DNA from: a virus
Taxonomy: Duplodnaviria; Caudoviricetes
Direction: 5' to 3' (one strand)
Length of the DNA: 64,000 bases
Virus record (IMG/VR): IMGVR_UViG_3300029913_000001
The notes beneath the pieces were generated by a model. That model had not been told where the DNA came from and made no database searches. It saw only the letters and a program-made list of their open reading frames with translations. The first letter of the stretch is position 1; every line of letters starts with the position of its first letter. Shown piece after piece: positions 4,847 to 53,633 of the stretch. The translations under genes were made by a program, and so were the position numbers.

Positions 4847-5850
4847 ATCTTACCATCGCAGGCCTTAACAATGTTACTTTGACTCTTACGTCCGATCCGA
4901 TAAAATTCATCGGCGGTTAACCATTTTGTTTCACTAACTTCAAAACCAGGTTTATCAAAATCTACGGGATCGGTTACTTCCCCAATAAAAATAGTCATCT
5001 CACTGGTTTCTGTATATCCTGTTATTTCACCTTTCCAACCAATCTTAACGGTGTTAGAAATCAAATTTGAAGGTCTCAACCCGCATTCTTCGTTTGCTTC
5101 TCTAAGCCCTGCTTGCATTTCGTTTTCACCAGCATCAACATGCCCCTTTGCAATCATGGGCTTGTCCCCACCATACGACGGATCGCTGCTAATAACAAAT
5201 AACATTCGAGCTACGCCGTTATTATCTCGGTAATACGGAATAAATCCGGCTTTTTTAATTTGGCTACGATCCCAAGCTTCTTCTAAGTTATTGGACATCG
5301 TACCTTTTAATTCACATTCAGCACAACAAAATTTCTGGTCAGTCGAATGAATATTTTTAAATGTTATTCCACAAACTGGACATTTTTTATCAACTGTTTT
5401 ATCCGCATTTGCAAATTCATTATACGTTAAACTTTCTTGTACAAGATCCCTCTTTTTCATTTTACGCATAAAACCATCTGGGCGATGAAGGAAAGACGAA
5501 ATGAGATCTTCCTTCTTACTTCCAATATTGCCACCCTCAGCAAATGTATTGGCGATTTCTGTAGCCGCATTAACTATATCATTCATTGTTAATTTACGAG
5601 GTTTTTTTCCTCGCAATTCTTCCCACATTAGATACATAAAATCCGAAGGATCATCATATATCTCAGCTAATACTTTTTTATTAGTCATATTAATTCTCGA
5701 ACATCCCATAAATTTTGTACTTAAAATTTTTGATTTCTTGGGCTCAGCACCTAAAATAGGGCCGAGCTCGTCAACTTTATCTTGTGGCCCGAGCCACTGA
5801 GAATTTCTATACGATTTATCAGATCCTAAAATTGTTTTTTTCTTTTTCAC
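4843..5850 (-). CDS. modular protein with zinc-ribbon and C-terminal Nudix hydrolase
   Basis: CPVC..CCAEC; Nudix box KGHVDAGENEMQAGLREANEECG. Confidence 0.8.
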   Translation of the reverse strand: MKKKKTILGSDKSYRNSQWLGPQDKVDELGPILGAEPKKSKILSTKFMGCSRINMTNKKVLAEIYDDPSDFMYLMWEELRGKKPRKLTMNDIVNAATEIANTFAEGGNIGSKKEDLISSFLHRPDGFMRKMKKRDLVQESLTYNEFANADKTVDKKCPVCGITFKNIHSTDQKFCCAECELKGTMSNNLEEAWDRSQIKKAGFIPYYRDNNGVARMLFVISSDPSYGGDKPMIAKGHVDAGENEMQAGLREANEECGLRPSNLISNTVKIGWKGEITGYTETSEMTIFIGEVTDPVDFDKPGFEVSETKWLTADEFYRIGRKSQSNIVKACDGKI

Positions 5851-6816: not shown

Positions 6817-7455
6817 TTAGTCGAATTCTTCATTTTCTGGGTTATACTTAACCGGTAGACCCTTAAAATCATCGGCATTAATTTTGGTTTCTTCATGCTT
6901 AATAGCAACATAAGCGCCGTGAATCCAAACATCATAATGATTAATTAATGGCCATTGCAAATTAGTATTGTATAATTCATTGTAATCTAAAAATTCTTCT
7001 ACATGTTCTGCATTCATCATTCTAGGACGAATATTATATGCGCACGCATTACAATTAGTAAAAGCCTTACTATATCCAAATGTAAATCCATTAATAGGAT
7101 ATATTTCATATACCTCTCCCCAAGATCTCGCCGCCCCGGTAAAAGAATTACAAAAAATACTATTACTTCGTCGAGCCGGCCATCCCGCTAACTTGAGAAG
7201 AAAATCAACCTTCTCCGCGGCCTCTGTTGAATAATATTCAACCGTAGGTCGATTTTCCCTAGAATAGCCAATAAAAGATTCTCGGGTTTCGTTCTTAATA
7301 CCGCGATATAATTTATAATCACCCGCAACAGATAAAAATTCGGAGCAATGCTCAACAATCCAGGATTGCAATTTATCCGATTTATATCTAGCAAGAGATA
7401 ATTGCTGTCCGGGTTTTAGCAAATCAACTCGATTTAAAATTTCATTTAACCGCAT
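6817..7455 (-). CDS. ART-like paralog 4 (start MRLNEIL)
   Basis: LYRG...GWPARRSNSIFCNS...YEIYPINGFTFGY...DVWIHGAYVA. Confidence 0.7.
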   Translation of the reverse strand: MRLNEILNRVDLLKPGQQLSLARYKSDKLQSWIVEHCSEFLSVAGDYKLYRGIKNETRESFIGYSRENRPTVEYYSTEAAEKVDFLLKLAGWPARRSNSIFCNSFTGAARSWGEVYEIYPINGFTFGYSKAFTNCNACAYNIRPRMMNAEHVEEFLDYNELYNTNLQWPLINHYDVWIHGAYVAIKHEETKINADDFKGLPVKYNPENEEFD

Positions 7456-7627
7456 TTTTTCTCTTCTTCCTATGTCGTTTAATCGGAGAATAAATTGATG
7501 AATTAGGGTCACCGCCAAAAAACTGTCCAGCCGGAGGTGTACCCATTGGGCTATTAACAGTTGATATAGATCCAGAGCTTGTTCCCCCGCTTGATCCATT
7601 TTCTCGAATTATGTCTTTTATCTTCAT
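7442..7627 (-). CDS. small Gly/Ser-rich putative virion protein
   Basis: MKIKDIIRENGSSGGTSSGSI; TAAATA motif 5 nt upstream of ATG. Confidence 0.6.
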   Translation of the reverse strand: MKIKDIIRENGSSGGTSSGSISTVNSPMGTPPAGQFFGGDPNSSIYSPIKRHRKKRKNAVK

Positions 7628-7635
7628 ATTAATAT

Positions 7636-8067
7636 TTATCGTTTTATTGTTGAACGAAGGAACCAAGCAAATTTTTCTTGGGAATCGATTAATCCTTGCA
7701 CGAAATTTTGTAACCCTAATTGATCGGGTGCCGATGCGTTAACTTCATTAAGAACTTCTATTAATTTTTCATTATCAATCAACAATTCTTGAATCATTTC
7801 TTGCGCAGGTAAAATACCAGCAAAATCAGATAACACCGATAATCCCATTATTTGTTGAAGACCGAGGGGAGTAAAAATATCAAGTGCTCGCATCTCTTCT
7901 CCAATCCCATCATAGGCAGTATCAACCGATTCATATATGAGTTGTAATAATTTATGCAATTCATAAAATCTCGGGCCAGTAATATTAAAGTGTGCAATAT
8001 GAACCTTAATTGTATAATGTAACACCGTAGCAGTCGCTACCGCCAGCACTTCCTCTAAATTTTTCAT
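7636..8067 (-). CDS. dps: Dps/ferritin-like protein
   Basis: HIAHFNITGPRFYELHKLLQLIYES...DGIGEEMRAL four-helix signature. Confidence 0.85.
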   Translation of the reverse strand: MKNLEEVLAVATATVLHYTIKVHIAHFNITGPRFYELHKLLQLIYESVDTAYDGIGEEMRALDIFTPLGLQQIMGLSVLSDFAGILPAQEMIQELLIDNEKLIEVLNEVNASAPDQLGLQNFVQGLIDSQEKFAWFLRSTIKR

Positions 8068-8152
8068 TTAATCTCCTATTTTGAAAATTGAATCTTCTGC
8101 TTTTCATTTAATTTAGAACTAATCTTCCAATGTTTTAATTGTATATTCGGCA

Positions 8153-8416
8153 TCATGCCAGTTGCCCATCCTTGGCATCCATAATTTTAATAACTCTGGA
8201 TAATATTTCAGTTTTTATGTCAGAGTTATTCCAATCTTTATCAACAAACAGATAAAATGGTTTCCACTTATTACCAATTATTTGCATGATTACCGTACCA
8301 ATTTCCCCAAAACCTTTACAATACCCAGATAATACATACACCGAAATTTTTGAACCGTTAGTTAATTTTCCAGTCCATTTAATTTTGTTCGAATTGTTAA
8401 TTTCATTTACTCGCAT
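8153..8416 (-). CDS. hypothetical protein (MRVNEI start)
   Basis: 87 aa ORF in operon context. Confidence 0.55.
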   Translation of the reverse strand: MRVNEINNSNKIKWTGKLTNGSKISVYVLSGYCKGFGEIGTVIMQIIGNKWKPFYLFVDKDWNNSDIKTEILSRVIKIMDAKDGQLA

Positions 8417-8442
8417 AGTTATACTGCTTTTAAAATTTCTGA

Positions 8443-9495
8443 TTATTTCTTTAGACCAAAATATTTACATAATAATTTGTCATAATTAATTTCTAGAATA
8501 TCCTGTCTAATTGCTACATAATGCCCACAAATACATACCTCATTCCTCGTTTTCATTGCTTGATCAAGATTATTAGTACGTATGTTATGATATTTTAAAA
8601 AATTATTTGATTGTTGCTTACGATCACTTGCCTGCATAATAAGTTTGTACGCGGTTTTTATGTTGGCGGATGAAATTGAATTCAACTTATATTTTTTAGC
8701 AATCTTGCAATAGGTATCTAACGTTGTTTTAATTTTTAATAATTCTTTATTCATGCTAGCTAAGACATCGGCTGTGTCGTAGGCATCAAAAAATCTAGCA
8801 TCTGACCAATATTCTTCAATACTTTCTATTATTCTACCGTCCGTTCTTGATAGTTCGGAAAAATCTGGAAAGGCTACGGAAAAACTCCTCAATAAAGTTA
8901 ATAATTTTTTAAATTCTATATTGCTATCAATTATATCATCCACAGATATTTCCCAATCTTCATGCTTACTCCAGGTATATGAAAATCCATCACAAGGAAA
9001 AATACAAAATATATGCCCATAACCATCTGCACCCAGACTGTTACTTATACAAAAAATACTATTTGATCGTATTGCCTTACAACCACCAAGCGATAATAAT
9101 TCATCCACATTTTTTTGAATTTTTTTCGGAGTATCCAATGGACGTCTATTCAATCGTGAAGCACCTATAAAATAAACCGTTTTGGGATCTATATCTCGTG
9201 ATCCGCGATATAATAATGAACTTGATTTTTTCATGTATCTTAAATATTCACTACAATTCTCCTCTATAAATCGGCAAACTTTTAAAAATCGAAGTTTATC
9301 TTTATCCCGCATTGATGCGGGATAAAGATTTAGCAATATTTTCTTGCTAGGCGTTAAATTTGCACTAAATAAGTCGCCTTCTACCGTTGATCCCGGTTTT
9401 AATTTCTTATAATTTTTCATAGGTAATTTACCCACTCTCTTAATCTTTTTCGTGATTTTAATCTCAGTTATCTTATTGTATGAATTAATAATCAT
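8443..9495 (-). CDS. ART-like paralog 5 (long insert); start uncertain (9495 or 9420)
   Basis: LYRG...GCKAIRSNSIFCIS...YGHIFCIFPCDGFSYTW...EVCICGHYVA. Confidence 0.7.
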   Translation of the reverse strand: MIINSYNKITEIKITKKIKRVGKLPMKNYKKLKPGSTVEGDLFSANLTPSKKILLNLYPASMRDKDKLRFLKVCRFIEENCSEYLRYMKKSSSLLYRGSRDIDPKTVYFIGASRLNRRPLDTPKKIQKNVDELLSLGGCKAIRSNSIFCISNSLGADGYGHIFCIFPCDGFSYTWSKHEDWEISVDDIIDSNIEFKKLLTLLRSFSVAFPDFSELSRTDGRIIESIEEYWSDARFFDAYDTADVLASMNKELLKIKTTLDTYCKIAKKYKLNSISSANIKTAYKLIMQASDRKQQSNNFLKYHNIRTNNLDQAMKTRNEVCICGHYVAIRQDILEINYDKLLCKYFGLKK

Positions 9496-14175: not shown

Positions 14176-16437
14176 TTATTTCTCCTGTACCGGTTTCTTA
14201 ATGGAAATAGGAAAAGTATTAATTGCTGTTCCAATTACAAGATTATTACCCACCCAATCTAAATTAACAGTCGCTCCGTTTGGAATGATTCCGTTTAATA
14301 GTTTAACGCTAAGTGGATATCTAATTAAAGAATCAATAATACCAGAAATCTTTCTTGCCCCATATTCATTACTCTTATTTAGCTCGAGCACATGGCTGAT
14401 AAGATTTTCAGTCGCAATAATAGTTAAATTTTTATCGGTAAGCGCAGCGATTTCTGCAATTTTTGTTTGTGCGATTTTACGATAACTAAGATCGTCCAAA
14501 CTATTATATTCAATCATAGCTGTAATGCGTCCTCGGATTTCAGTGAGGAAAACATTATTAATAGCCTTTGTAACTGCACTCATGCCATTTGAGTCCGGAA
14601 TAAAACCTAAATTAATCTTACTCTTTTCTCGACTGCCTACATTACTACTCATAATAATAATTGTATTTTTGCAATCGGCTGTTTTTCCACTGGCACTTGA
14701 AATAGTACCTTCATCCATCATCTGAAGAAGCAAGGTGTATAAATTTGGATTTGCTTTTTCGATTTCGTCGAAAAGAATAACCGAATTTGGATGCTTCATT
14801 AAATCGTTGATAAGTTTGCCTTCTCCTGCATCCCCATCCCCATATCCTTTATATCCAGGGGGCGCACCGATTAATGTCGCCATTGCGTGATCTGCCTGAT
14901 ATTCACTCATATCGTAACGAAGTAAATGCATATTCATATACGATGCAAGTTGCTTTGCGGTGTAAGATTTACCTACGCCGCTAGGGCCGGTTAGTAAAAA
15001 ACTACCAATGGGTTTAGATGGATCTCGCAACCCGGCTTGTGAAATAATTAGGGACTCGGCAATTTTATCAATTGCATGTGTCTGATGGAAAATTTTTGAA
15101 TTTAGGGTCTCTCGAATATTAAGAATATCGGCCGCGTTATTCTGATCAGTCGTCTTAACCAAAATGCCGGTACTAGTTTCGATCTCTCGAATAATATCCA
15201 ATTTTGTAATACGCTTATTCTTATCTTTAGCAACCGTTTTACGGGCGCAAGCAGAATCGATCAGATCAATTGCTTTATCTGGAAGCTGCCGATCTGGCTG
15301 ATAACGAACGGATAATTCGACTGCGGCTTCGATTGCATCGTCCTGAATACGGCATTTATGGAATTTATTAAAACTGTTCTTAACTCCTTGAAGAATTAAA
15401 ATAGTTTCTGCTTTACTCGGTTCCTTTAGAGCAAGCAATCGAAACCTACGCATAAGAGCGGTATCTTTCTTAAATGTCTGGGTATATCCATCCCATGTAG
15501 TTGCTGCAATAACTTTAATATTACCGCGACTAAGTTCAGGTTTCAACATTGCTGAAAAGGCAACACCGGAATCATTTGAGCCGCCTCCGGAATTAATCTG
15601 TTGAGCCTCATCTATAAAAAGAATGGCATTTTTTTCATTAACTAATGCGGCTAAGACATTCTTAATCTTTTCCTCAAAATCTCCTCGGAAATGGCAACCG
15701 GCTAAAACCGATCCAACATCTAGACTATAAATAATCTTATCTTTTAAAGTACTGGGTACAATACCCGCATTAATATTACGAGCTAATCCTTCAATTAATT
15801 CCGATTTACCTACTCCAGGTTCCCCAACCACAAGTACATTATTCTTTTTCTTCTTCGACAGTGCATGTGCAATGTCAAACAATTCAATTTCCCGGCCAAT
15901 TAGCACATCGGTAGTACCTTTAACTTTTTCATTTAAATTCACACAAAATTCAGCTAATGCGGTAGTTGACTGTGTATCAGACGTTGTTAATTGATCTAGT
16001 CCGTCAATAATTTTGGAAGTAATGCCGTATTTCTCTAGAAAATAACTAGCATACGACTCCTTTTCGTTATATAACTTACGAAAAATATCACCAAAAGTTA
16101 CTTCTCTGCCATATTTTGTGGCTTCGGAGTAAGCCGAAACTAAAACTTTTTGCACCGAGGCTGTAATTTGCCCAGTCATAATATTCGGCTCGTTACTGGC
16201 AATTTTATTTTGAAGTCTAGGAGTTTGTGCTTCGATAAACTTTTTGATGGCCTCAGCCATCAAACTAACCGAAACTCCCTGATTTTCGAGATACTTCCGG
16301 ACAGATGAATACGACAAACTTGCATAAAGAATATGTTCGAGAGTAATAGTTGTTTGATCTAAATTAATAGCAAGCTGAAAACTAATATCAATAAGATTCT
16401 TAATTAACGGCGATCCGTTCGAAGTAGCAGTTGGCAT
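14176..16437 (-). CDS. clpA: ClpA-like double AAA+ unfoldase
   Basis: Clp N domain, GEPGVGKS, FIDE, GPSGVGKS, FDEIEK, LGF loop after IMSSNVG; no ClpB M domain. Confidence 0.85.
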   Translation of the reverse strand: MPTATSNGSPLIKNLIDISFQLAINLDQTTITLEHILYASLSYSSVRKYLENQGVSVSLMAEAIKKFIEAQTPRLQNKIASNEPNIMTGQITASVQKVLVSAYSEATKYGREVTFGDIFRKLYNEKESYASYFLEKYGITSKIIDGLDQLTTSDTQSTTALAEFCVNLNEKVKGTTDVLIGREIELFDIAHALSKKKKNNVLVVGEPGVGKSELIEGLARNINAGIVPSTLKDKIIYSLDVGSVLAGCHFRGDFEEKIKNVLAALVNEKNAILFIDEAQQINSGGGSNDSGVAFSAMLKPELSRGNIKVIAATTWDGYTQTFKKDTALMRRFRLLALKEPSKAETILILQGVKNSFNKFHKCRIQDDAIEAAVELSVRYQPDRQLPDKAIDLIDSACARKTVAKDKNKRITKLDIIREIETSTGILVKTTDQNNAADILNIRETLNSKIFHQTHAIDKIAESLIISQAGLRDPSKPIGSFLLTGPSGVGKSYTAKQLASYMNMHLLRYDMSEYQADHAMATLIGAPPGYKGYGDGDAGEGKLINDLMKHPNSVILFDEIEKANPNLYTLLLQMMDEGTISSASGKTADCKNTIIIMSSNVGSREKSKINLGFIPDSNGMSAVTKAINNVFLTEIRGRITAMIEYNSLDDLSYRKIAQTKIAEIAALTDKNLTIIATENLISHVLELNKSNEYGARKISGIIDSLIRYPLSVKLLNGIIPNGATVNLDWVGNNLVIGTAINTFPISIKKPVQEK

Positions 16438-16482: not shown

Positions 16483-17073
16483 TCAAGAGAAAAACGAAAC
16501 TAACTGAATAAAAAGATCTCCTCGCAGTTTTGTTTTTCGATTGAATAAACCAGCATCGGGTATTCGATAAATTGTTTTTGATTTACATCTTTTCGGTATC
16601 GAAATTCGGAATCGTACGCCATCGGGTCCAATTATTGTTATTTCCCCGCCTACTATACTCTTCCAAAAAGATACTCGAATTTTTTGAATTAATTTATCGG
16701 CTATTACAATAAAATCATTGGGCATTTCTACCTTAATTTTTGCTTGCAAAATAGAAAATCGATCTTCCTCTAGCTGAATATTTCGAAAACATAACGATTC
16801 TCCAGTTTTAATACCGGCAGGTATTGATAATCGAAAGGTTCGATTACCATCATTGGACATAAAATATCGTTCACATCCTAATATAGAATCTTGTAAAGAT
16901 ATCGCAATTTTAATCTGAAAAATTGTATTAAGACATTTGTTATATTCAAGATTCAGCAAATTAAATTTTTCTGCGGCTAGCGGATCAGTTGGATGTAAAT
17001 CTGGATGGCATTCTTTTGCCAATTTTCGATAATTAGAGTGAATTTGATTGAAAAAGATAGAAGAGTTAGGCAT
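16483..17073 (-). CDS. DnaJ/CbpA-like co-chaperone (J domain + C-terminal domain, no zinc finger)
   Basis: YRKLAKECHPD; IPAGIKTG, GDLFI. Confidence 0.85.
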   Translation of the reverse strand: MPNSSIFFNQIHSNYRKLAKECHPDLHPTDPLAAEKFNLLNLEYNKCLNTIFQIKIAISLQDSILGCERYFMSNDGNRTFRLSIPAGIKTGESLCFRNIQLEEDRFSILQAKIKVEMPNDFIVIADKLIQKIRVSFWKSIVGGEITIIGPDGVRFRISIPKRCKSKTIYRIPDAGLFNRKTKLRGDLFIQLVSFFS

Positions 17074-17096: not shown

Positions 17097-17549
17097 TTAA
17101 ATTCGATATTGTAATTCCTTCTCAGTTTCTTGCTTAACTATAAATTTAATAGGTGGGCATAATCCATTCCAAAATTCTGGTGTGCCATCTGGCATTTTTT
17201 TTCTTAGTGCATCATTTGTTACAATTAATTCTACTTCTCTCCAAGCCAAGCTCGATCTCGATTCATGCAGGGATAAAATTTCAAATCGAAATTTGTCTTT
17301 TCCTCTTAAGGTAATTTCTTCATTTAATGTCTTACAACTACCGGTATATTTTTTCCAATTCGATTCATTTATTACTTTTTTTCTATTTGTTCTGTTTTTA
17401 ATTTTTTTTCGGGTTGTCATAAAAAAGAATTTCTTGCCGATATATTTGCGATTGGTATCTATACATGTAATTTTATACACAAAGCCAATCCATTCAGTTG
17501 GATCAAAATTAAATGGAAATTCCCAATGTCCTATGTCTATTTTTTCCAT
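17097..17549 (-). CDS. GIY-YIG (Seg-like) endonuclease-like protein
   Basis: GFVYKIT...KYIGKK...WKKYTGS...FRFEIL. Confidence 0.7.
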   Translation of the reverse strand: MEKIDIGHWEFPFNFDPTEWIGFVYKITCIDTNRKYIGKKFFFMTTRKKIKNRTNRKKVINESNWKKYTGSCKTLNEEITLRGKDKFRFEILSLHESRSSLAWREVELIVTNDALRKKMPDGTPEFWNGLCPPIKFIVKQETEKELQYRI

Positions 17550-17604: not shown

Positions 17605-18120
17605 TTATTTACCGATTATTAAATTTTTCGCAGCTAATTTTTTATTGGAAAATATTTTCTTTTGTCTATTACGTGATTTGTAATAAGCGGCGTCTTTTAA
17701 AATTCGTTGTCGAAAAATCCATTCGTTGTCTTTTAAAAGAATAGCAATTGAAATCGTATTTGGATTTAACTGAAATAATAGATCAGTGTCATTAAAAAAA
17801 TCAATTATGTCATCTCGTAAAATTCCTATACGAAAATTTTCGGTTTTGCTATAAGAAATTATTCCCTTTTCTTTTAAACTATAATATTGTTCTATAATTG
17901 ACATAAAAATATAATTGGGAATATCTTGCCAATCGCAATACAGTTTAATTTCATTAATTGTATCAATCCAAAAATTTTTATCTATTTCATTAATTGAATT
18001 GTCGAAGTCAATTATCATATTCCAAAAATTCATTGATATATCAAAAAATATTAAAAATAATTGTTTTTGCAATTCATTTAATTTAATAATTTCATCTTGA
18101 TAATATGATACATATTTCAT
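17605..18120 (-). CDS. hypothetical protein (start MKYVSY)
   Basis: The ORF-track extension to 18210 lies within a palindrome and is probably non-coding. Confidence 0.55.
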   Translation of the reverse strand: MKYVSYYQDEIIKLNELQKQLFLIFFDISMNFWNMIIDFDNSINEIDKNFWIDTINEIKLYCDWQDIPNYIFMSIIEQYYSLKEKGIISYSKTENFRIGILRDDIIDFFNDTDLLFQLNPNTISIAILLKDNEWIFRQRILKDAAYYKSRNRQKKIFSNKKLAAKNLIIGK

Positions 18121-18135
18121 AAATATATTTCCTTG

Positions 18136-18305
18136 TTTTGCTTTTCCGAGTGGTGGATGACAACACCAAGCGAAAGCGATATGCGAAGCCAGTGAACGAC
18201 AGTGAAACATCTCATCAAATATTATTAAAATTTTTCACTGTCGTTCACTGGCTTCGCTTACTGGCGCTTTCGCTATGTGCTCTCCACAAGTCCGAAAAGC
18301 GAAAA
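18136..18305. repeat. ~170 bp imperfect palindrome with a perfect 25 bp core inverted repeat
   Basis: GCGAAGCCAGTGAACGACAGTGAAA (18183-18207) / exact reverse complement (18233-18257); outer arms GCGAAAGCG/CGCTTTCGC and GCTTTTC/GAAAAGC. Confidence 0.9.
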
Positions 18306-18329
18306 TTTTAAATATTTTTGATGAATTAA

Positions 18330-18795
18330 AAATAAAATTATGGTTATTTTAAAGACAAAGACGCTTGGGGCGCCTCCCGTCTCTTTGGAACAACTTCCAA
18401 ACTAAACTCCAATCCTTCCTATCCCGCTATATCATTAAGATCCGGCTCTTCATTTTGGGCTTCCGGGGCTTCATAGGAATTTCAGCGGTTATGCTGTACT
18501 GAAATAAGACCGTGCGGTCTATGATTGATCTGAAAAACACAACGCAATTATTTCAAATGAGTTTAGCAATTTGAAATAACTATATCAGGATTAGGAGCAT
18601 TACGCTCTCGCCTTTACCTGTCTGTCTTTGTCACTTTTCTCAAGCCATGATAGCTATATTGATGGGGGGACCCTCCAGGTAGTACTCTACCAACGACATT
18701 GGACACTAGGAGTTGCTGGGTGTTTAAGGCCAATAACCTTTGATCTAAATTGTAGGTATTGCTCCATATTTGCTACTCCATAAGTATTTTCCATG
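18330..18795 (-). ncRNA. candidate large structured ncRNA (family unknown; boundaries approximate)
   Basis: No ORF of 60 aa or more; raised GC; multiple hairpins; own promoter at 18806-18834. Confidence 0.45.
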
Positions 18796-18805
18796 ATTAA
18801 TATAC

Positions 18806-18834
18806 AATATAACATTGATACGTTAACTTGTCAA
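18806..18834 (-). promoter_or_regulatory. sigma70-type promoter facing the non-coding region
   Basis: TTGACA-17-TATATT. Confidence 0.65.
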
Positions 18835-18847
18835 GACATTTTTTATT

Positions 18848-20149
18848 TTATTTGAAAAAATAATTTGCTTCTTCTATCTGTTCAACTGTAGCATTGGGAA
18901 AAAATAAATTTCTCATATTTTGAGCCATAGCCTTAGTTGGTAGATATACAATATTGTTATTATATGCTCCGGTTCTTAAGGAACTACGTAAAAGACCTTG
19001 ATATGAGTGAGATAGCGTATGATGCATTAAAATTTCGTCAGCATCGAATCCGAGATCTACCATTTTTTTCTGGTACGCGGGTGGCCACCTATAAGCACCA
19101 GATTCTCCGTAATTATGTGTACCAACATAGGTGTTTAATCCCTTAACTTCAAACGGCATAAAAATAGGATTTTTAATATGGGTAAATTTATTACCTTTAT
19201 TATTCTGTAACAAAATTTCGTTATCACCAATTGAATTTCCAACTAATAGATCGAATAATTCGAAATTGGTAAGAGTTGGTTCTATAAGATTTTTTGAGTT
19301 GTAGTAATTTTTACTCCATAGACTAATTTTTTCGGTCATCCATTTGATAGTAATAGGTTGATCGTGCTTATCAAATCTTTTAGGAATTACAAACTCTTCA
19401 ATTGCAATGCCTTTTAACTTAAAATAGGCTATGATTTTACTACGTTGAATTTCTGCGCCCATTAAATAAATGTTTTCAAAACCTTCAAATATGTTGGTAT
19501 TTAATTCAGCCCACATTTCGGCTTCGTAATTACCAAATTTAAAAGCTGTCAATGATGCAGTATCCGCATATATTTTCATATTGGGATTCAATATCAATTG
19601 AATAAATTTTTGGAATGGCGGGTAAATAAAATCGTCGCGAAAGCAAAGAGTTTTTAAAAATCGCTGATCTTCTTTTGAGAGACGTTTTCGCTTAATAGAC
19701 GTGTACCCACCGGCATTTATTTTGCAGGTACTAATTTTTTCAATATCTGCCATTAGGTCATTACCGAATTCATAACTTGATGCATCGTCCGAATCAAAAG
19801 TAATGAAGTCAGTTGGTTCTATTTCTTCATCAACAAAAACAGTCCAATTTTTTTTATTCGGAAAATTCAAAATATTCTTAAATGCCGCATGTGTAATAAT
19901 AAGGACTTCGCATCGTAATGGTATTGTTAGATATGCATTGATTGCCTTAGTAACACCCATACTGTCATTTTCCATATAATTGATAATTTTATATGGGGTA
20001 TTTCCCAATCGTTTAGCAATTTCGTATTGCAAATCGGTTGAGGGGGTTACGAAAAGCACTCGTTTTTTGTTATTAACGAGTTCTTTAGATAAGTTAACAG
20101 CAAAATATGTTTTGCCGGCCCCGCACAACGAATTAATATATCTTATCAT
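18848..20149 (-). CDS. SF2-like helicase / origin-binding-like protein
   Basis: Walker A SLCGAGKT, VLFVTPS, LIITH, Walker B VFVDE, motif VI-like YQGLLRSSLR. Confidence 0.65.
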   Translation of the reverse strand: MIRYINSLCGAGKTYFAVNLSKELVNNKKRVLFVTPSTDLQYEIAKRLGNTPYKIINYMENDSMGVTKAINAYLTIPLRCEVLIITHAAFKNILNFPNKKNWTVFVDEEIEPTDFITFDSDDASSYEFGNDLMADIEKISTCKINAGGYTSIKRKRLSKEDQRFLKTLCFRDDFIYPPFQKFIQLILNPNMKIYADTASLTAFKFGNYEAEMWAELNTNIFEGFENIYLMGAEIQRSKIIAYFKLKGIAIEEFVIPKRFDKHDQPITIKWMTEKISLWSKNYYNSKNLIEPTLTNFELFDLLVGNSIGDNEILLQNNKGNKFTHIKNPIFMPFEVKGLNTYVGTHNYGESGAYRWPPAYQKKMVDLGFDADEILMHHTLSHSYQGLLRSSLRTGAYNNNIVYLPTKAMAQNMRNLFFPNATVEQIEEANYFFK

Positions 20150-20184: not shown

Positions 20185-20744
20185 GCTATTAATTCCTTGA
20201 TAAGTGCATTGAATTTTTCTTCCGCCAAGAACATACATTTTCCAGTAATTAGTATTTCATTACCTGATGTAGTTGCCTTTAACAAATTATCCTGCCTAAA
20301 TGAATATAACGAAGTAAACTCGTTGGGATCCATGTCTATAATTTTAGGTGCGTATTTTGAATATTTGCCCTGATCATAATTCGTATATAAATCTTGCATC
20401 GTTTCTGACCATGTGAACTCGAAGTTATTGAATGGGAAGGTTATGAAAATTTTTCCATATCTATTTGCCACAGATCTTTTATTTGTGCAGAAAATACTAT
20501 TCGATCGTAGAGCCTTAAATCCTGCTGCTGATAATTTTTCATCAAATATTTTTTGTTGTTTAATAGAAAATGACATTGGGTGCCTATCGGCAACCTTAGA
20601 AATAATAAACATATTTTCTAATCGGTGTGATCCGTGATAAAGAAATTCACCCGAAGATTTGTAGAAATCAACAATTTGAGAGCAAGATTTGCTGATAAAT
20701 TTTTTAATATTATTGAGGTCTGGAGTAATTTCAAATTCTCTCAT
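20181..20744 (-). CDS. ART-like paralog 7 (LYHG variant)
   Basis: MREFEI start; LYHG...GFKALRSNSIFCTN...YGKIFITFPFNNFEFTW...EILITGK. Confidence 0.7.
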   Translation of the reverse strand: MREFEITPDLNNIKKFISKSCSQIVDFYKSSGEFLYHGSHRLENMFIISKVADRHPMSFSIKQQKIFDEKLSAAGFKALRSNSIFCTNKRSVANRYGKIFITFPFNNFEFTWSETMQDLYTNYDQGKYSKYAPKIIDMDPNEFTSLYSFRQDNLLKATTSGNEILITGKCMFLAEEKFNALIKELIA

Positions 20745-22474
20745 TAATATCCTATTGCTATCCAGAACGCAGTTTCCCCACTACCACCGCAAATTATATT
20801 AAAATGATCGGAATCTGTTGGCGCTGCCGCCATTGGTTGGGGTACTCCTAGTGTTACACGCGGCCCGTTATCGGTAGCAACCATTCCAAAACAAGCATGG
20901 GTAAATGGGGTAGTAAAGGGAAAATTTTGTGTAGTATTATCCACAAGTGACGGAGTCGTACCCCATTGCAAGATTAGGCCACCCGGAAAATATTGATATC
21001 CATTGCCGCTAAGAGCATGAGTTAAAAATGAATTAAGATTGTAGTTACCCCATGCTGCTAATGCCGAGCCTGCATTTATAAGCGGAGATCCTACAGAAGG
21101 TGGCGCTGCCGTAGGTAATGATATTTGGCCCGCACCTCCTTGATTAATTACCGTAGTTCCTTGAATGTGTAAATCACTTTGCGCAGTAACTAGTGCGTCT
21201 AGAGTTGAAACACCATCTACTGAAAGTTGATTTTGTACCGTAAGAGTGCCATTAACAGTGGTGTCACCAACCGAATCAATTGTTAATAGATTAGTGCTGC
21301 CGCCAAAAGTTTGAACTACAAGAGCTTTTGGTGCGGTCGCGCCGGGCTGTATTGTTACATAACTTGCCGTTTCCGCTCCTGTAATCAGCCCGCCTAGTAT
21401 AGCAGTACCCAATACAGAAAGATTTTCTGAAATTAATAATGATTCACTAATAGCAGCCGAATTTGCTACCGTTAACGGACCAATTATATTTGCACCGGTT
21501 GAATTTACATTGCCTGCTATATCAACAGTATCGTAAACTTCAATATTTTCAACATTTAAAGTATTTGGAATTATTACATTCTCACCCGTGCTATCTAATG
21601 TTAGATTAGCAGTAGCGGATAAAATACCATTTTGATTAAACAATACTTGATTATTACTGCCAGGTACAGTACTATAAAGCGAATTAGCTACAACTAAATT
21701 ATTTATATACACGGTACCAGTTATATTTGCTAATTCTCCTGCAACCAACGTGTTTCCATTAGTAGCATAAAGAACATTGCCATTGTTAACCGATAGTACT
21801 GTATTGTCATTAACATCAATAGACATGCGAAGTTGGTCATTGTCGCCAATTGATATATCGTTGACGTTATAAATTCCGCTGCCGGTAATACCGTGCGTCG
21901 GTGAAGTGACAAAATTTATGCCGGGTCTAATATTTCCAAACCCTGCTATACCTGGACTAATGAGATTATCTGAAGAGACAATAGCAATAAGATTATCATT
22001 AGCATATAATTCTAGATAGATAATATTACTATTAGACGCTAATGCAGTTACCACAAATCCTTCTAGCCCGGTGCCTTCACTTCCCGGAGGCCCAATTAAA
22101 ATCCATTGATTAAGAGTTATATCCCATACAAAAAGTTGTTTATGTACGGTGTCAAACCATTCGTCACCTTCTAATGGATTTAATGGGGCTACCGCGCCGG
22201 TAGTAATAACACTTATTGGTTTGAAAATTGTTCCATTCCAGAACTTAATGATATTAGAAACGCTATCGAACCAAAATTGTCCTATGAATGGATTTGGGGG
22301 AGGGGTAGAGTTTGCAAAATTTTCAGTTATTCTAACTAAATCTTCATTTAAGACCGTACCGAAACCTGGATATTTTTTTCCGATAAGAGTAAGGCCGCCA
22401 TAAGCAGATACCATTTGAGAATCGGGGACGTTTGTTAAAATATTTCCATTAGTTAAATTTACTTTATATCCCAT
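20744..22474 (-). CDS. tail fibre / short fibre-like structural protein
   Basis: LTLIGKKYPGFG...ENFA, PxxGQFWFD repeats, C-terminal YQYFPGGLILQWG fibre-tip motif. Confidence 0.75.
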   Translation of the reverse strand: MGYKVNLTNGNILTNVPDSQMVSAYGGLTLIGKKYPGFGTVLNEDLVRITENFANSTPPPNPFIGQFWFDSVSNIIKFWNGTIFKPISVITTGAVAPLNPLEGDEWFDTVHKQLFVWDITLNQWILIGPPGSEGTGLEGFVVTALASNSNIIYLELYANDNLIAIVSSDNLISPGIAGFGNIRPGINFVTSPTHGITGSGIYNVNDISIGDNDQLRMSIDVNDNTVLSVNNGNVLYATNGNTLVAGELANITGTVYINNLVVANSLYSTVPGSNNQVLFNQNGILSATANLTLDSTGENVIIPNTLNVENIEVYDTVDIAGNVNSTGANIIGPLTVANSAAISESLLISENLSVLGTAILGGLITGAETASYVTIQPGATAPKALVVQTFGGSTNLLTIDSVGDTTVNGTLTVQNQLSVDGVSTLDALVTAQSDLHIQGTTVINQGGAGQISLPTAAPPSVGSPLINAGSALAAWGNYNLNSFLTHALSGNGYQYFPGGLILQWGTTPSLVDNTTQNFPFTTPFTHACFGMVATDNGPRVTLGVPQPMAAAPTDSDHFNIICGGSGETAFWIAIGY

Positions 22475-44884: not shown

Positions 44885-45042
44885 TCGGATAATTTTTCTA
44901 TCAAAATATAATTTTTAGCTTCGATTTCAGTATCAAATACTCGTAAAAATTGGGCGAGCCCTCGATAATCTAAGCGATAAACTAGCCATCTATCGCATAT
45001 TAATATAGGTGGCAAAATTTCATATGTATATTCAGTATTCAT
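44881..45042 (-). CDS. KLSE-family small protein (53 aa, not in ORF track)
   Basis: MNTEYTYE...FDTEIEAKNYILIEKLSE. Confidence 0.65.
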   Translation of the reverse strand: MNTEYTYEILPPILICDRWLVYRLDYRGLAQFLRVFDTEIEAKNYILIEKLSE

Positions 45043-45053
45043 ACAATTTGTAT

Positions 45054-45408
45054 ACCCCGTTTCTTTTACATAGGCGGGGTCACCCTACGGCGCACAGTTT
45101 TTAGGCTAGTGCGAGCTCGCGATTGCTAATTTTTACAGGGTACGTAAAAATCTTGGTCGCGCCATTGACGATTGAATCGGCAATTATACATATCATTTTT
45201 CAATTATGGGCGAAAATAACAAAGACCCAAGCCGTCCACATGACTTTCATTTATCCGTCGAAACCGTGACGCGCCCTAGTAGAATACTGGGGTGTAACAC
45301 CACATCCATCTAATACGAAACTATCTAACTAGTTCAGTATTCTTTTGGACGCGCGGAGAGTTGAACTCCGGTCCGCATAAAGAAATTCATGCTTCGTACG
45401 ACTCTAAC
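45054..45408 (-). ncRNA. ssrA: circularly permuted (two-piece) tmRNA: acceptor piece ~45408-45346, intervening segment 45345-45277, coding piece from 45276
   Basis: T arm CGGAG-TTCAACT-CTCCG, 3' CGCGTCC-A pairs with downstream GGGCGCG (G3.U70); TTTCGAC D-loop analogue; AGAATACTG/CAGTATTCT intervening stem; tag frame 45181-45101. Confidence 0.9.
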
Positions 45409-46068
45409 TTATGCAAATTTTTTTTCGTTGATCATAATTGGTTTCGAATACAATTCTTTCATTACTTTTGCATAACCGACTGAATTAGTACACAATGTCT
45501 TAAGATGATCCCGATATAATCTTTTTCTGAGTATTGCATGATGCCCTTCATCCAAATTAGTTAATAAACCACCATTAGTTAAAAGTCCAAAAATATCGAT
45601 TAATTTAGATTCAGCTTGAAATGCTTCTGCTTCAGTTAAACTTCCTTTAACTCGAAATACTATATGCTTTTCATTTAACGAATTTATAGATTGCAAAATT
45701 TTTCGATGTGTTTCATTTCGCCGCGAATTTTTATCACGATCATTTACTCCTTTTCCTATATAAAAAGGAACATACTCCATACCCAGGCTAGCGGCAAACG
45801 CGTCTTTTGCTTTTTCTAAATCAAGATCAAACAATGGATTCAAGTGAGCATACACAAAATATTTCTTTTCGTTTGATAATTCTAAATCTTCATAAATCGA
45901 GCTAATATCGGAATTCCATATAGAATTATATGCTTCGAATTTTGGACCCTGCCTAACGATATTCTCCGCTCCTAGACCATTCTTTTCTAACGCTCGAATT
46001 CTAGATTTTAAATATCGAACTTTACCTTTCAGCGAATCAATCGAATTCCAATTAACCTTAATATTCAC
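45409..46068 (-). CDS. GIY-YIG family putative homing endonuclease (probable GTG start at 46068)
   Basis: YFVYAH...PFYIGKG..R...H...EAEAFQAESKLI...GGLLTN. Confidence 0.75.
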   Translation of the reverse strand: MNIKVNWNSIDSLKGKVRYLKSRIRALEKNGLGAENIVRQGPKFEAYNSIWNSDISSIYEDLELSNEKKYFVYAHLNPLFDLDLEKAKDAFAASLGMEYVPFYIGKGVNDRDKNSRRNETHRKILQSINSLNEKHIVFRVKGSLTEAEAFQAESKLIDIFGLLTNGGLLTNLDEGHHAILRKRLYRDHLKTLCTNSVGYAKVMKELYSKPIMINEKKFA

Positions 46069-49731: not shown

Positions 49732-49760
49732 AGTATATCAACTTTCGGTTAGTTTGTCAA
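49732..49760 (-). promoter_or_regulatory. sigma70-type promoter of cca
   Basis: TTGACA-17-TATACT, ATG 6 nt downstream. Confidence 0.8.
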
Positions 49761-49773
49761 GAGAAAATTACTG

Positions 49774-49904
49774 GTTGAAAACAAAGGACTTAAATCACCC
49801 CAGTATGCCCTGATTCAATTCCGCCATACCAGACCACAACGGGCCCATATTGGGGCCCTGGTGGGGGAATTATAATATATCGACCCTTTTAAATCAATGA
49901 CTTA
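49774..49904 (-). repeat. 131 bp conserved intergenic element, copy A
   Basis: Aligns end to end with 53953-54082 (inverted); shared boxes AAGT..TTGATTT.AAAGG, CAGGGCCCCAAT, TAAGTCCTTT.TTTTCAAC. Confidence 0.75.
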
Positions 49905-50087
49905 ATCGGTATCGTGGTCCTCATCGTTGGCCTTGGCAATAAGATCTCGCATAGAAGTCTTATAACGAGCGGGTTTTTCATGCTTTGGTGTGATTGCAAA
50001 CGAAGCCTTAGGTGTACCAATACGATCTCGGGCATTCGATTTCACTTGAGCAACAGCACTGAAAACATCCTTTTTACGCTTCGACAT
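49902..50087 (-). CDS. small basic protein
   Basis: 61 aa, AVKSNARDRIGTP-type basic motif. Confidence 0.55.
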   Translation of the reverse strand: MSKRKKDVFSAVAQVKSNARDRIGTPKASFAITPKHEKPARYKTSMRDLIAKANDEDHDTD

Positions 50088-50281
50088 TATTTTCTCCGAT
50101 TTCTTAAGGTTTTATAAAGAACAAATCCAGCAACAATGCCAGCAAAATTAGCTGCTCGTTGTTCGGGAGTCCAATGAAAACATCCGGCCAATTGGCTAAT
50201 CAAAAACATCAAAAAACCAAAGGACACAAGCGCAATTCCTCCGAATACAATCCAAACAATTGCACCTAAAATTAAATTCAT
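50087..50281 (-). CDS. small membrane protein
   Basis: Two hydrophobic segments; SD AAGGAG; promoter TTGACA-17-TATACT at 50302-50330. Confidence 0.65.
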   Translation of the reverse strand: MNLILGAIVWIVFGGIALVSFGFLMFLISQLAGCFHWTPEQRAANFAGIVAGFVLYKTLRNRRK

Positions 50282-50359
50282 TTGATCTCCTTACTTAAAT
50301 AAGTATAACAAATATCAGTCTAAATGTCAACCGAATATAAAGTCTTTGCTATAAACTGT

Positions 50360-50971
50360 TTACAGTTCTGAAATCGAAAGTTCATTTAGACATTGAAACT
50401 CTGTGCCTTCAATTGTCTTTTCCCAGTCGGCATGGTAATGCCCAAAATTCCAATATTTCGGCTGATATGCCGAAAACATTGCGGACAGTGCTTGCCCTGT
50501 TCGAGTCGGATAAACTTCCGGATTGCCATACAATGAATGCCGAAGTAAAATGTGCGCTGCTACTTTCGTGGGGCAATCATGTGAGAGCACAATTTCTGGT
50601 CGTTCATTGATATAAAGTTCAAATGCATCTTCGAGTTCCTTAATCGAAAGCTCTTCATCGTACCACCAGGTTAATCCCGATCGGCGAAATCTTTGATCGA
50701 TACTCCAAGCGCCAGACAAGTAAAATACTTTTCGATCATCGATAATTTTAACACCATAATCACCCAGATAATTGGGGTGTGCTCTTGCTACTGCGGGGTT
50801 ATCATGATTTCCGCGAATAAAATAAAAATTTTCAGGGAAAGTTGGAAGCGTAGATTGCCCTGGAAAACCGACACCAAAATCCCCCACCTGAATAATTGTC
50901 TTGCCGGGATTTTCCGTTACAATCTTTTTGCATTCCTTAAATTTTCCATGTACGTCACCAATTAGCAGCAT
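50360..50971 (-). CDS. calcineurin-like metallophosphoesterase
   Basis: GDVHG, VGDFG, RGNHD, SHDCP, FGHYH. Confidence 0.9.
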   Translation of the reverse strand: MLLIGDVHGKFKECKKIVTENPGKTIIQVGDFGVGFPGQSTLPTFPENFYFIRGNHDNPAVARAHPNYLGDYGVKIIDDRKVFYLSGAWSIDQRFRRSGLTWWYDEELSIKELEDAFELYINERPEIVLSHDCPTKVAAHILLRHSLYGNPEVYPTRTGQALSAMFSAYQPKYWNFGHYHADWEKTIEGTEFQCLNELSISEL

Positions 50972-51019
50972 ACTTTTTCCTCTCGGTATAAATGTTAACG
51001 GAAATATTTCCGATAGTTT

Positions 51020-51310
51020 CTACTCGTGAAATACCGGTGATTCGATCTCGGGCGGAGCCCCGTTTTCATTTGAAACATGCTTCCACGTTAATTTACCGGT
51101 TCGAATTTCTTCCAATGCAATCTTTGGTAGCCGGCAAAAAGGTATTTCTTCTCGGCCCGGATTAAATTCTTTTGAAAGTCCATGCTTAATCGACGCTCCG
51201 TTGATAAGCTGATTTGTTCGGGCCATTACCATTGTTGCCAGCAGATATCTACTACCAACCTTTTCTAAATGTGATTGGATTGTTTTGATTTTTTCTTTTT
51301 CGTTTAACAT
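51020..51310 (-). CDS. rpoZ: RNA polymerase omega subunit-like protein
   Basis: LEKVGSRYLLATMVMARTNQL..GA...KIALEEIRTGKL matches the omega core pattern. Confidence 0.7.
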   Translation of the reverse strand: MLNEKEKIKTIQSHLEKVGSRYLLATMVMARTNQLINGASIKHGLSKEFNPGREEIPFCRLPKIALEEIRTGKLTWKHVSNENGAPPEIESPVFHE

Positions 51311-51322
51311 TTTTTCCTTTTG

Positions 51323-52135
51323 TTATTCTGAATATACTTCTTCGAATTCAACCTGGTCGTAATACGGATTAACAACTAATTTCGCCATCGGATACCATTG
51401 TCCCTTGTGCAAAAATCTATCGTCGACTACTACATAATTCGTTAACTTTTCAAAAAATTGCGGAAGATGTTTTACAAAATATTGATGCAATGGAATTGCA
51501 ACCTGCCGCATTGAAGGATGTGCAGTTTCCGGTGTTCGTTTATAGAAAAAATTCCACCAGCTACCTAAATTTAGACTTGCAGCATATTCTGTCTTCACGC
51601 CTTGAGGAAGCCAATACCGAGCCTTTTCTGGGGTCCACCCACGAGTCCGCCATTTTGCGTATCGGGAATCATCGGCTCGTGTATCACTAACAAATTCTGC
51701 CCAATCATCATTGTTATCTGAGGAATATTCATTAACCCACGGTGGCAAAATATATGATGCACCTTTATTTAACTCGCCTTCTTTTGCATAATCAACGTAC
51801 CTTGTACTTTCCTGCAGGTAGGCCGCCATTCTGTGACGCACGCCTTCGTGGGAGACTCCTCGATCTGTAATGAATGTCGACGAAATCATTCGATGCTCGG
51901 CAATTCCGGTATGCCGATTTGTATTGAAAAGTCTACCGGGAAATGTGAGATAGGAATCATCGGTCATTCGACCTTCTGATTTATAACACTTTCTGGAAAA
52001 CATTTCAATTTTCTTTAACATGTGTTGCGCCAATGTCATTCCATTAGGCAACAGCATTTCGAGGTCGTCTTCGACGATAACAACGGGTTTAATGATTCTC
52101 ATATATAATGTCCTTAGTTCACAATTGGTACCCAT
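51323..52135 (-). CDS. thyX: flavin-dependent thymidylate synthase
   Basis: RGVSHEGVRHRMAAYLQESTRYV, ARYWLPQ, AHPSMR. Confidence 0.9.
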   Translation of the reverse strand: MGTNCELRTLYMRIIKPVVIVEDDLEMLLPNGMTLAQHMLKKIEMFSRKCYKSEGRMTDDSYLTFPGRLFNTNRHTGIAEHRMISSTFITDRGVSHEGVRHRMAAYLQESTRYVDYAKEGELNKGASYILPPWVNEYSSDNNDDWAEFVSDTRADDSRYAKWRTRGWTPEKARYWLPQGVKTEYAASLNLGSWWNFFYKRTPETAHPSMRQVAIPLHQYFVKHLPQFFEKLTNYVVVDDRFLHKGQWYPMAKLVVNPYYDQVEFEEVYSE

Positions 52136-52338
52136 TTACCAGAAAACCATGTGCCTGGATTATACCATACCGATGTAGATACGTATTGCTCAGTACGCAC
52201 AAGAGATAACGAACGACTTCCGGTATTCAAAAATTTGCTGCAAGCCGGACAACGGTCGTACGGATCATACCCACTGCAACAGTTCCGATAAAGATGTGCG
52301 CCACAGGCGCCGCATTGCATAACAAATCGTCTATCCAT
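52114..52338 (-). CDS. zinc-ribbon protein
   Basis: CGAC...CPAC. Confidence 0.55.
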   Translation of the reverse strand: MDRRFVMQCGACGAHLYRNCCSGYDPYDRCPACSKFLNTGSRSLSLVRTEQYVSTSVWYNPGTWFSGKWVPIVN

Positions 52339-52350
52339 TTAAATGGCCTT

Positions 52351-52566
52351 CTATTCCGGTATTTGAACTAATTGCTTTTCTAGAAAATCCCCACAGGTAA
52401 GACAGGTATTCGTGTAGAGCAATACATGCCCATCTGACCGTTCGTTATACAGTGAATCGCGATATATTCTTACAGATTTAAATTCCGAAACAAGTTTCCA
52501 TTTATCTTTATCAAACGTATGACGATGCGGCGATGCGGTTTCAATCAATCCCCAAAATAGCTTCAT
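52351..52566 (-). CDS. small hypothetical protein
   Basis: 71 aa, H..H...CLTCG. Confidence 0.55.
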   Translation of the reverse strand: MKLFWGLIETASPHRHTFDKDKWKLVSEFKSVRIYRDSLYNERSDGHVLLYTNTCLTCGDFLEKQLVQIPE

Positions 52567-52590
52567 ATGATTTTTCCTTGAATTACCATA

Positions 52591-52625
52591 AAAATAACGG
52601 GCTGAATCTGTCAGCCCGTTATTTT
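52591..52625. terminator. intrinsic terminator
   Basis: AAAATAACGGGCTGA-ATCTG-TCAGCCCGTTATTTT. Confidence 0.85.
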
Positions 52626-52639
52626 AATTGATTTTCGAA

Positions 52640-53284: not shown

Positions 53285-53394
53285 AATTGAATTTGTCCTT
53301 TTCGGTTGGGGCGCTGCTTTGCAGTCACCGGGTTAACTTTTATAACGGAATGATCAGTCGTCATTTCCGTTACGTTTATCTCATCAACATAATC

Positions 53395-53423
53395 AGTATA
53401 GCAAACTTGGATTTACTTGTCAA
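53395..53423 (-). promoter_or_regulatory. sigma70-type early promoter
   Basis: TTGACA-17-TATACT. Confidence 0.8.
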
Positions 53424-53426
53424 CCG

Positions 53427-53570
53427 TTACCTACCAAAAATTACAGAAAAAAATCCAATTACGGCAGATGTAATTACGCAACACATCGCGGTAATGGGAA
53501 AGTGTGTTAATAGTGCGCACGCTGAGGTAAGCACCAACACCTGCGAACACCAGAGCAATCGATTTCTCAT
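53427..53570 (-). CDS. 47 aa hydrophobic peptide
   Basis: MRNRLLWCSQVLVL...; SD GAGG; promoter TTGACA-17-TATAAT at 53598-53626. Confidence 0.5.
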   Translation of the reverse strand: MRNRLLWCSQVLVLTSACALLTHFPITAMCCVITSAVIGFFSVIFGR

Positions 53571-53633
53571 GAAACCTCTTTCTCATTCACTAAACCAATT
53601 ATAGCAAAATTCGAATACATTGTCAACCAAAAT

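Follow-up and report, generated by a model that had tools for sequence, protein, structure and literature searches.

What does a giant phage encode in the largest stretch of its DNA that holds no open reading frame (ORF)? We address this question for a gap in 64,000 nucleotides (nt) of virus DNA (Duplodnaviria; Caudoviricetes), hereafter the window, which belong to IMG/VR virus record IMGVR_UViG_3300029913_000001, a 105-kb record with an estimated completeness of 29%. DNA near-identical to it comes mostly from peat metagenomes and from a few freshwater ones. An earlier note on the window, made from its letters alone, had proposed that the gap holds a promoter-driven, novel large structured phage RNA. 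Our analysis supports this proposal through negative Rfam searches, strong covariation and the lack of a conserved reading frame. We consider it probable that positions 18347–18799 of the minus strand are a stand-alone gene for a structured non-coding RNA of ~450 nt, which would represent a new family in giant T4-like phages and would be early and trans-acting.

A conserved locus without a reading frame

Relatives of the locus were gathered through the flanking proteins, and then with nhmmer and a covariance model (R1) of the most conserved block of the RNA. The helicase-like protein encoded upstream has seven relatives with 52–62% identity, and for the SegE-like protein encoded downstream the protein collection contains 44 relatives and IMG/VR 467 loci. 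With nhmmer and the covariance model, homologues of the RNA were found in five further full-length lineages and one partial lineage, all of them upstream of a SegE-like/DnaJ/ClpB gene block and in the same orientation:

L019:4690–5100, full length
L017:6470–6960, full length; also in four other contigs
L022:7600–8085, full length
L034:4160–4536, full length; also on a 360-kb IMG/VR contig
L043:2680–3067, full length; also in five other contigs
L024:2143–2319, partial, cut by the contig end

The nhmmer E values against the five other lineages range from 1e-67 to 1e-98. Identity to L019 is ~72% over 174 nt by blastn, and the nhmmer alignment to L019 extends over 425 nt (E 3e-35). When the stretch was compared by blastn with 50,697 deposited phage genomes, there was no match, and scans of IMG/VR with an exact 22-mer, a strict pattern and a medium pattern recovered only L017-type copies. 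A relaxed pattern returned 29 stretches from IMG/VR, of which five are real (L043 and L034 types) and the others are chance matches. The strict pattern had no match in the collection of bacterial and archaeal genomes, and the relaxed pattern returned at least 120 stretches, none of them homologous by nhmmer among the matches listed, which does not demonstrate that cellular genomes lack the RNA. Metagenome contigs searched via the helicase returned only the L011-type relative. Covariance model R1 and nhmmer found nothing in ~70 other SegE-bearing loci, and no second copy of the RNA in this record. As judged from these searches, the putative RNA family is limited to one small clade of giant T4-like phages, found in peat and in fresh water.

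With an ORF cut-off of 60 amino acids (aa), the gap in the window spans 18211–18847 and is the largest, as the note had described it; the second largest holds a transfer-messenger RNA (tmRNA). The gap measures 727 nt if the ATG at 18120 starts the downstream 171-aa ORF. The description of the region as richer in guanine and cytosine (GC) is correct relative to its immediate flanks (0.39–0.42 versus 0.20–0.31) and incorrect relative to the window, where many coding parts are equal or higher (0.39–0.46). TAA, TAG and TGA are mixed in all six frames of 18100–18860 and every frame is closed, so no single recoding opens a frame, and alternative genetic codes were rejected on this ground. The 35-codon ORF that had been pointed out in the gap does exist, but it is conserved in no homologue. 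The six homologues have no frame or strand in common, and their longest stop-free stretches (48–73 aa) lie in differing frames and strands.

Comparison with known RNA families was among the checks that the note had proposed. The covariance models of Rfam 15, whose families include RNase P, group I/II introns, 6S, SRP, tmRNA, GOLLD, ROOL, OLE, HEARO and raiA, gave no match at any useful threshold for this copy or five homologues. The window's only match at the gathering score is the tmRNA at 45101–45403. At E values up to 10, only scattered unrelated matches were seen (e.g., microRNA models on a palindrome), and these differed among the window, L034, L017 and L019. A group I/II intron was rejected, given that the helicase-like gene is full length (433–436 aa) with or without the RNA, the SegE-like gene is complete and no intron model matches. 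Several resemblances picked up by eye were rejected as well: RNase P-like motifs (GAGnAAAGU, ACAGAAU) lack conservation between lineages and match no model, the 11-nt GAAA-tetraloop receptor (UAUGG/CCUAAG) has no second strand, the GGA of a CsrA-type sponge is not conserved in the repeats, and the regular 36-nt tandem of a ToxI-like antitoxin array occurs in L017 only. No transfer RNA (tRNA)-like element was found in the RNA. Full-text literature searches found no published description of it, and a structured-RNA survey of IMG/VR reports motifs of 29–151 nt only (PMC10690425). The predicted RNA family is previously undescribed and has a narrow distribution.

Helices, pseudoknot and covariation

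Full-length alignment with MAFFT followed by RNAalifold recovered few helices. Because length variation of the inserts defeats full-length automatic alignment, the helices were curated by hand and sub-blocks were checked formally. The features of the RNA gene, in 5′ to 3′ order of the minus strand after the whole gene, are as follows:

18347–18799, minus: whole RNA gene, ~450 nt, with a core from P2 to the terminator of ~375 nt; nhmmer homologues, no open frame, no Rfam match
18806–18834, minus: sigma-70-type promoter; −35 TTGACA 18834–18829, 17-nt spacer ending in TGT, −10 TATATT 18811–18806
18745–18799, minus: 5′ extension, variable between lineages; three AUGG-containing repeats and the start of the non-conserved 35-codon ORF
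18703–18740, minus: P1 (18740–18737/18729–18726) and P2 (18723–18720/18706–18703)
18643–18700, minus: most conserved block; joiner AAUnUCGUU, P3 (18691–18687/18682–18678) and P4 (18677–18675/18669–18667)
18655–18652/18646–18643, minus: P5 with an invariant AUCAU loop, within the most conserved block
18548–18620, minus: P6 (18620–18617/18589–18586) with an inner hairpin, and P7 (18579–18569/18558–18548)
18480–18547, minus: invariant UUGCG, P8 (18520–18516/18511–18507) and P9 (18504–18499/18485–18480)
18543–18539 with 18492–18488, minus: pseudoknot between the five bases after UUGCG and five bases in the P9 loop UACAGCAUAACCG
18385–18478, minus: 3′ domain; P10 (18478–18473/18422–18417) and the P12 hairpin (18400–18395/18390–18385)
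18347–18374, minus: terminator-like hairpin (arms 18374–18370/18364–18360) with the U-rich tail UUUGUCUUUAAA

The alignments show, at the level of sequence comparison, that at least 12 predicted helices and one pseudoknot are kept across 6–7 lineages by compensatory substitutions. The hand-curated set (P2–P10, P12, the terminator and the pseudoknot) comprises 60 pairs, in which 359 of 370 cells are canonical (97%). Column shuffles of this set gave 245 ± 7 paired cells and never reached the observed values, and 50 of the 60 pairs change on both sides. The formal checks of sub-blocks agree with this picture. For P3–P5, 96.4% of cells pair in a model-fitted alignment of seven lineages, compared to 79.7% after shuffling and at most 64% with the partners slid, and 7 of the 12 pairs have changed on both sides. 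For the block from UUGCG to P10, a plain MAFFT alignment has 89.4% of cells paired, compared to 69.2% after shuffling and 23–55% in slid controls. In the same plain alignment all six pairs of P9 have changed on both sides; for the pseudoknot, pairing is present in 90% of cells and two pairs are doubly changed. The covariation check in related giant phages, another test named in the earlier note, has thus returned strong compensatory change. The five hairpins that the note listed are all in place and correspond to the covarying helices P7, P9, P8, P12 and P3, and the GAAGCCC direct repeat is likewise present (18441–18474).

Single helices illustrate how the pairing is maintained. All seven lineages retain P2, with differing sequences (28/28 cells pair, 4/4 pairs doubly changed), and P1 is present in some lineages only. 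Covariance model R1 finds the most conserved block in seven lineages at 77–94 bits. P6 pairs in 24/24 cells and P7 in 34/36; the arms of P7 in the window are perfect over 11 nt, and all 6 of its counted pairs have changed on both sides. P8 pairs in 30/30 cells, P12 in 24/24 and P10 in 36/36, the last with 6/6 pairs changed on both sides. P10 closes a variable insert that starts with a conserved GAAG, and this insert has two layouts, one in the window, L019, L034 and L043 and the other in L017 and L022, each supported by covariation within its group. The unpaired segments that are conserved are AAUnUCGUU, the AUCAU loop of P5, UUGCG, the UACAGnAUARCC loop of P9 and the GAAG after P10. The 5′ extension with its AUGG repeats is accessory, because it is found only in the window, L017, L022 and L024. 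Several pairs (10:25 and 53:59 in the model-fitted alignment of P3–P5) are fixed as G-U or U-G, and the RNA is read from the minus strand because these pairs would be A-C on the other strand. Folding of the whole stretch, on either strand, gives a z of about −7.5 relative to shuffles, and a 160-nt palindrome outside the element (18140–18300) is the dominant contributor to this value.

Transcription signals and competing explanations

The TTGACA-17-TATATT promoter described in the note lies on the minus strand (18834–18806), matches the consensus at 11/12 positions and has an extended −10 element (TG upstream), with an expected start near 18799. By our own count the window has eleven near-consensus sites, ten of them on the gene strand, and six of the eleven, the RNA promoter included, are TTGACA-17-TATAnT with a preceding TG. 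The RNA promoter thus belongs to the strong host-type promoters that this phage has of its own. At 49760–53933 of the window (minus strand), five near-perfect TTGACA-17-TATAnT promoters with TG are clustered within 4 kb, which looks like an early-gene region with many small ORFs. Among the homologues, a full TTGACA-17-TATTAT site was read in L024. At the 3′ end, the terminator-like hairpin pairs in 29/30 cells, and the hairpin and its UGUCUUUAAA tail are conserved. With its extension, the hairpin folds at −15.7 kcal/mol in the window, and the values across lineages are −7 to −16 kcal/mol; a terminator scan calls the homologous hairpins in L017 and L034.

A transcript was a further check that the note had named, and parts of the stretch are present in assembled contigs from three peat metatranscriptome libraries (three studies; the RNA runs were chosen using this stretch), which is weak evidence. 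The contigs cover 18376–18526, 18402–18567, 18442–18645 and 18649–18799, and the last ends exactly at the predicted start, a weak hint. Four natural variant positions in these runs (18458, 18479, 18530 and 18533; mapped by hand) are all unpaired in the model. One library also has contigs from downstream genes. Upstream of 18800, in the helicase and tail-fibre genes, there is no RNA-library contig, and a DNA run covers this part; its lack of RNA coverage counts as no evidence.

Taken together, these observations are consistent with an RNA that the unmodified host polymerase would make early in infection and that would be released as a discrete molecule. Such an RNA may act in trans through its three-dimensional fold, which would make it neither a messenger RNA leader nor a DNA element. 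Most likely it would bind protein, as a scaffold or a decoy for some factor of host or phage; a role as catalyst would be less likely. Several points weigh against a stand-alone, early, trans-acting RNA. Nothing in the analysis points to a partner, target or activity, and only 6–7 lineages are known. The RNA is absent from a close relative (L011 type) and from a complete 328-kb genome of the wider group, and so must be dispensable or replaceable. Because the lineages are few and the helices were partly picked by eye, the hand-curated counts lean towards pairing. The promoter is clear only in the window and L024; L022 and L034 have 9/12 matches, the promoter scan calls none in L019, and none was found in L017. 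The terminator scan makes no call for the hairpin in the window, L019 and L022. The RNA-library contigs show neither strand, level nor true ends, and DNA carry-over is possible, so they are evidence of presence in RNA libraries only. In a more far-reaching version of the same reading, the RNA would represent a new class of large functional RNAs that only giant T4-like phages have, and could be a ribozyme, a ribonucleoprotein core or a self-assembling RNA particle. It would be produced within minutes of the start of infection and would seize or disable a process of the host, and homing-endonuclease genes would gather around its gene on account of its highly constrained sequence. We regard this version as possible but doubtful.

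The RNA could instead be a cis-acting leader, namely a large sensor or attenuator. Its terminator would then set how much transcription passes from the early promoter into the SegE-like, DnaJ and ClpB genes. Like riboswitch, T-box and antitermination leaders, it is a structured RNA that is followed by a putative intrinsic terminator, and it always stands upstream of this block in the same orientation. The modest strength of the terminators (−7 to −16 kcal/mol), the two mutually exclusive hairpins that the terminator region of the window can form and the downstream contigs in one RNA library would also suit a leader. However, 300–750 nt separate the terminator from the SegE-like gene, with palindromes, UUCG hairpin arrays and, in two lineages, extra genes in between. 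The next gene differs between lineages, the SegE-like gene has a conserved TAAATA-type motif of its own just before its start, and the RNA is missing from ~70 other loci that have this operon. Neither a conserved antiterminator nor a conserved alternative pairing is seen in the alignments, and no Rfam leader model matches. The size and helix number of the RNA are far beyond those of known leaders such as riboswitches and T-boxes. We therefore consider a leader unlikely.

Features of the locus also recall a T4-type replication origin, in which the RNA would be an origin transcript that primes or opens the DNA, like those of oriE and oriF/oriG or ColE1 RNA II. These transcripts are likewise untranslated and come from early or host-type promoters, with repeats, an AT-rich tract and a helicase gene nearby. 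T4 oriE has evenly spaced direct repeats and needs an early promoter, and oriF/oriG consist of a promoter and an AT-rich unwinding element (PMC3016281). Here, an early-type promoter precedes an untranslated RNA, and in four lineages this promoter is surrounded by iteron-like ATGG repeats, which in L017 form a 36-nt tandem. Each lineage has an AT-rich tract and a long palindrome behind the RNA, and a gene for an SF2 helicase-like protein adjoins the locus in this phage and three relatives. The L011 type has, at the position of the RNA, a gene for a D5-like primase/helicase together with an AT-rich gap that contains 49-nt inverted repeats. Yet R-loop formation at oriF is independent of specific sequences (PMC3016281), whereas 12 helices and a pseudoknot appear to be under selection here. 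The terminator lies between the RNA and the AT-rich tract; promoter and tract are both present, with ~450 nt of structured RNA between them. The repeats are not family-wide, being absent in L019, L034 and L043 and unevenly spaced elsewhere except in the L017 tandem. L034 and L043 have no helicase nearby, and the cumulative GC skew has no turning point at the locus. An origin is thus quite unlikely in our view. The least probable explanation, and a very unlikely one, is that nothing functions at the RNA level, and that the locus is a decayed gene, a mobile-element remnant or a set of hairpins acting as DNA structures. The locus is a hotspot of mobile genes, in which HNH, GIY-YIG and D5-like genes vary between lineages, and the RNA is missing from the L011-type relative. 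Decay does not yield double compensatory substitutions in 50 of 60 pairs or G-U pairs fixed on one strand, nor does it fit the ~72% identity to L019, which is high next to a helicase protein that is only 55% identical, or the lack of a shared frame. The covariation in the alignments has already largely excluded this explanation.

Neighbouring genes, known RNAs and other elements

The neighbours of the RNA are those that the earlier note described, and the gene order on the minus strand is:

20744–22474, minus: Gp53-like tail-fibre gene, followed by a 187-aa ORF
18848–20149, minus: ResIII/DEAD helicase-like gene, followed by the ORF-free stretch
17605–18120, minus: 171-aa ORF, no family
17097–17549, minus: SegE-type GIY-YIG gene
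16483–17073, minus: DnaJ gene
14176–16437, minus: ClpB gene

The suggestion of an RNA–protein system with these neighbours is not supported. The helicase is not constant: it is the upstream neighbour in the window, L019 and L017, an HNH endonuclease gene is inserted after it in L022, and in L034 and L043 the upstream neighbour is a GIY-YIG gene. The next downstream gene is the 171-aa orphan in the window and an HNH-type gene in L022, and there is none in L017, L019, L034 and L043. No Pfam or PHROG family contains the 171-aa ORF, and searches of IMG/VR and of a set of 5.8 billion proteins returned nothing beyond this genome's own copy. The SegE-like gene is the constant neighbour of the RNA, yet ~70 of 80 other phage loci have it without the RNA. 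No neighbouring gene is a convincing partner. In several lineages the RNA gene is flanked on either side by homing-endonuclease-type genes (HNH, GIY-YIG). This clustering fits the settling of such genes next to a tightly constrained sequence, and not a functional partnership.

Conservation of the SegE-type GIY-YIG protein is unusually high, with 45–84% identity across 44 protein clusters and 467 IMG/VR loci. Besides the window, 80 IMG/VR loci (L035–L114) were considered; in the loci inspected its gene stands beside DnaJ and ClpB, and this position together with its conservation suggests a fixed core gene and not a roaming homing endonuclease. In L011, the closest relative that lacks the RNA (7444–8877; also in L009, L010 and L016), the place of the RNA is held by a 477-aa D5-like primase/helicase ORF, which is followed by a 700-nt gap of ~24% GC with 49-nt inverted repeats.

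Of the known phage RNAs, ROOL and GOLLD, large ornate RNAs that phages and prophages often carry, are similar to this RNA in being stand-alone genes on phage DNA, large, multi-helix and pseudoknotted, without a conserved ORF, and discovered by covariation alone with function not known. Both are in Rfam, and neither covariance model matches this copy or five homologues. In addition, the RNA described here is smaller (375–490 nt), has another helix layout, occurs in one narrow phage clade only, and stands beside homing-endonuclease-type and chaperone genes instead of tRNAs. ROOL and GOLLD are reported to self-assemble into cages (bioRxiv 10.1101/2024.12.08.627333). The permuted tmRNA of the same window (Rfam RF04321, 45101–45403) is likewise a structured RNA gene of this giant phage; it occupies a separate locus and has no sequence or model similarity to the RNA here, which lacks a tRNA-like domain and a tag frame. 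This tmRNA is of the permuted two-piece type (45010–45435, minus strand), and ARAGORN predicts for it a 26-residue tag ending in ALA. The stable RNAs of T4 called species 1 and 2 (rnaC and rnaD) are early RNAs of ~120–140 nt from the tRNA cluster beside segB, and their function is not known. They resemble the present RNA, which is presumably early as well, as non-coding RNAs beside a Seg-type GIY-YIG gene, and differ in that ours is three times larger and pseudoknotted, a distinction drawn from their description.

To our knowledge, few large RNAs combine many covarying helices with pseudoknots, and nearly all of those with a known function are ribozymes or essential ribonucleoprotein cores; each new class is for that reason a candidate for new RNA biochemistry. 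At 375–450 nt, the RNA is small enough for chemical probing and cryo-electron microscopy, and six natural sequence variants are in hand. The giant phages that have it also carry tmRNA, DnaJ and ClpB, which suggests that they hold more RNA-based machinery than is now annotated. The locus shows homing-endonuclease genes clustering around a conserved RNA gene, and it may bear on the organisation of T4-type origins and early untranslated transcripts.

Further repeats and palindromes surround the RNA. ATGG-containing repeats of the approximate form ATGGnGAAGTAAAyA (ATGGnGAAGTAAA-like) lie around and just downstream of the RNA promoter, at 18745–18834 in the window, L017:6368–6483, L022:7540–7620 and L024:2080–2170. 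The L017 tandem comprises 3.2 copies, the uneven spacing is that of the window, L022 and L024, and the motif is not enriched elsewhere in the window. Beyond the terminator, outside the RNA core, lies a separate feature:

18121–18346, no strand assigned: AT-rich tract and palindrome

The AT-rich tract occupies ~18301–18346 (~45 nt), and the imperfect 160-nt palindrome has its inner arms at 18180–18210 and 18230–18260. A long palindrome is found soon after the RNA terminator in every lineage or, if there is no RNA, at the corresponding position (window 18140–18300; L019:5162–5211 and 5478–5526; L022:8144–8221; L011:8904–9061). The arms measure 17–49 nt and are often perfect, and their sequences are unrelated between lineages. 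These palindromes could be cruciforms, RNase III sites, strong terminators or origin elements.

The spacer between the RNA and the SegE-like gene contains arrays of hairpins topped by GC-UUCG-GC (T4-style cUUCGg), at L019:5380–5700, L017:7055–7400, L022:8380–8620, L034:4590–4990 and L043:3100–3460. It also has two conserved blocks, GAGGTGTGTGAACCAAGCGA and GAACCAGAGGTTT. In appearance it resembles a further conserved non-coding element, or else a 5′ leader, long and structured, for the SegE, DnaJ and ClpB genes. In more distant phages, L040:2840–3320 and L064:2700–3270 share a different ORF-free element of ~500–700 nt upstream of the SegE-like gene. The motifs shared by the two include GGCGGGCACCATCATCC and CCAGAGCATAATCTTT. 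Because this element neither matches Rfam nor resembles the RNA described here, it may be another RNA of no recognised family.

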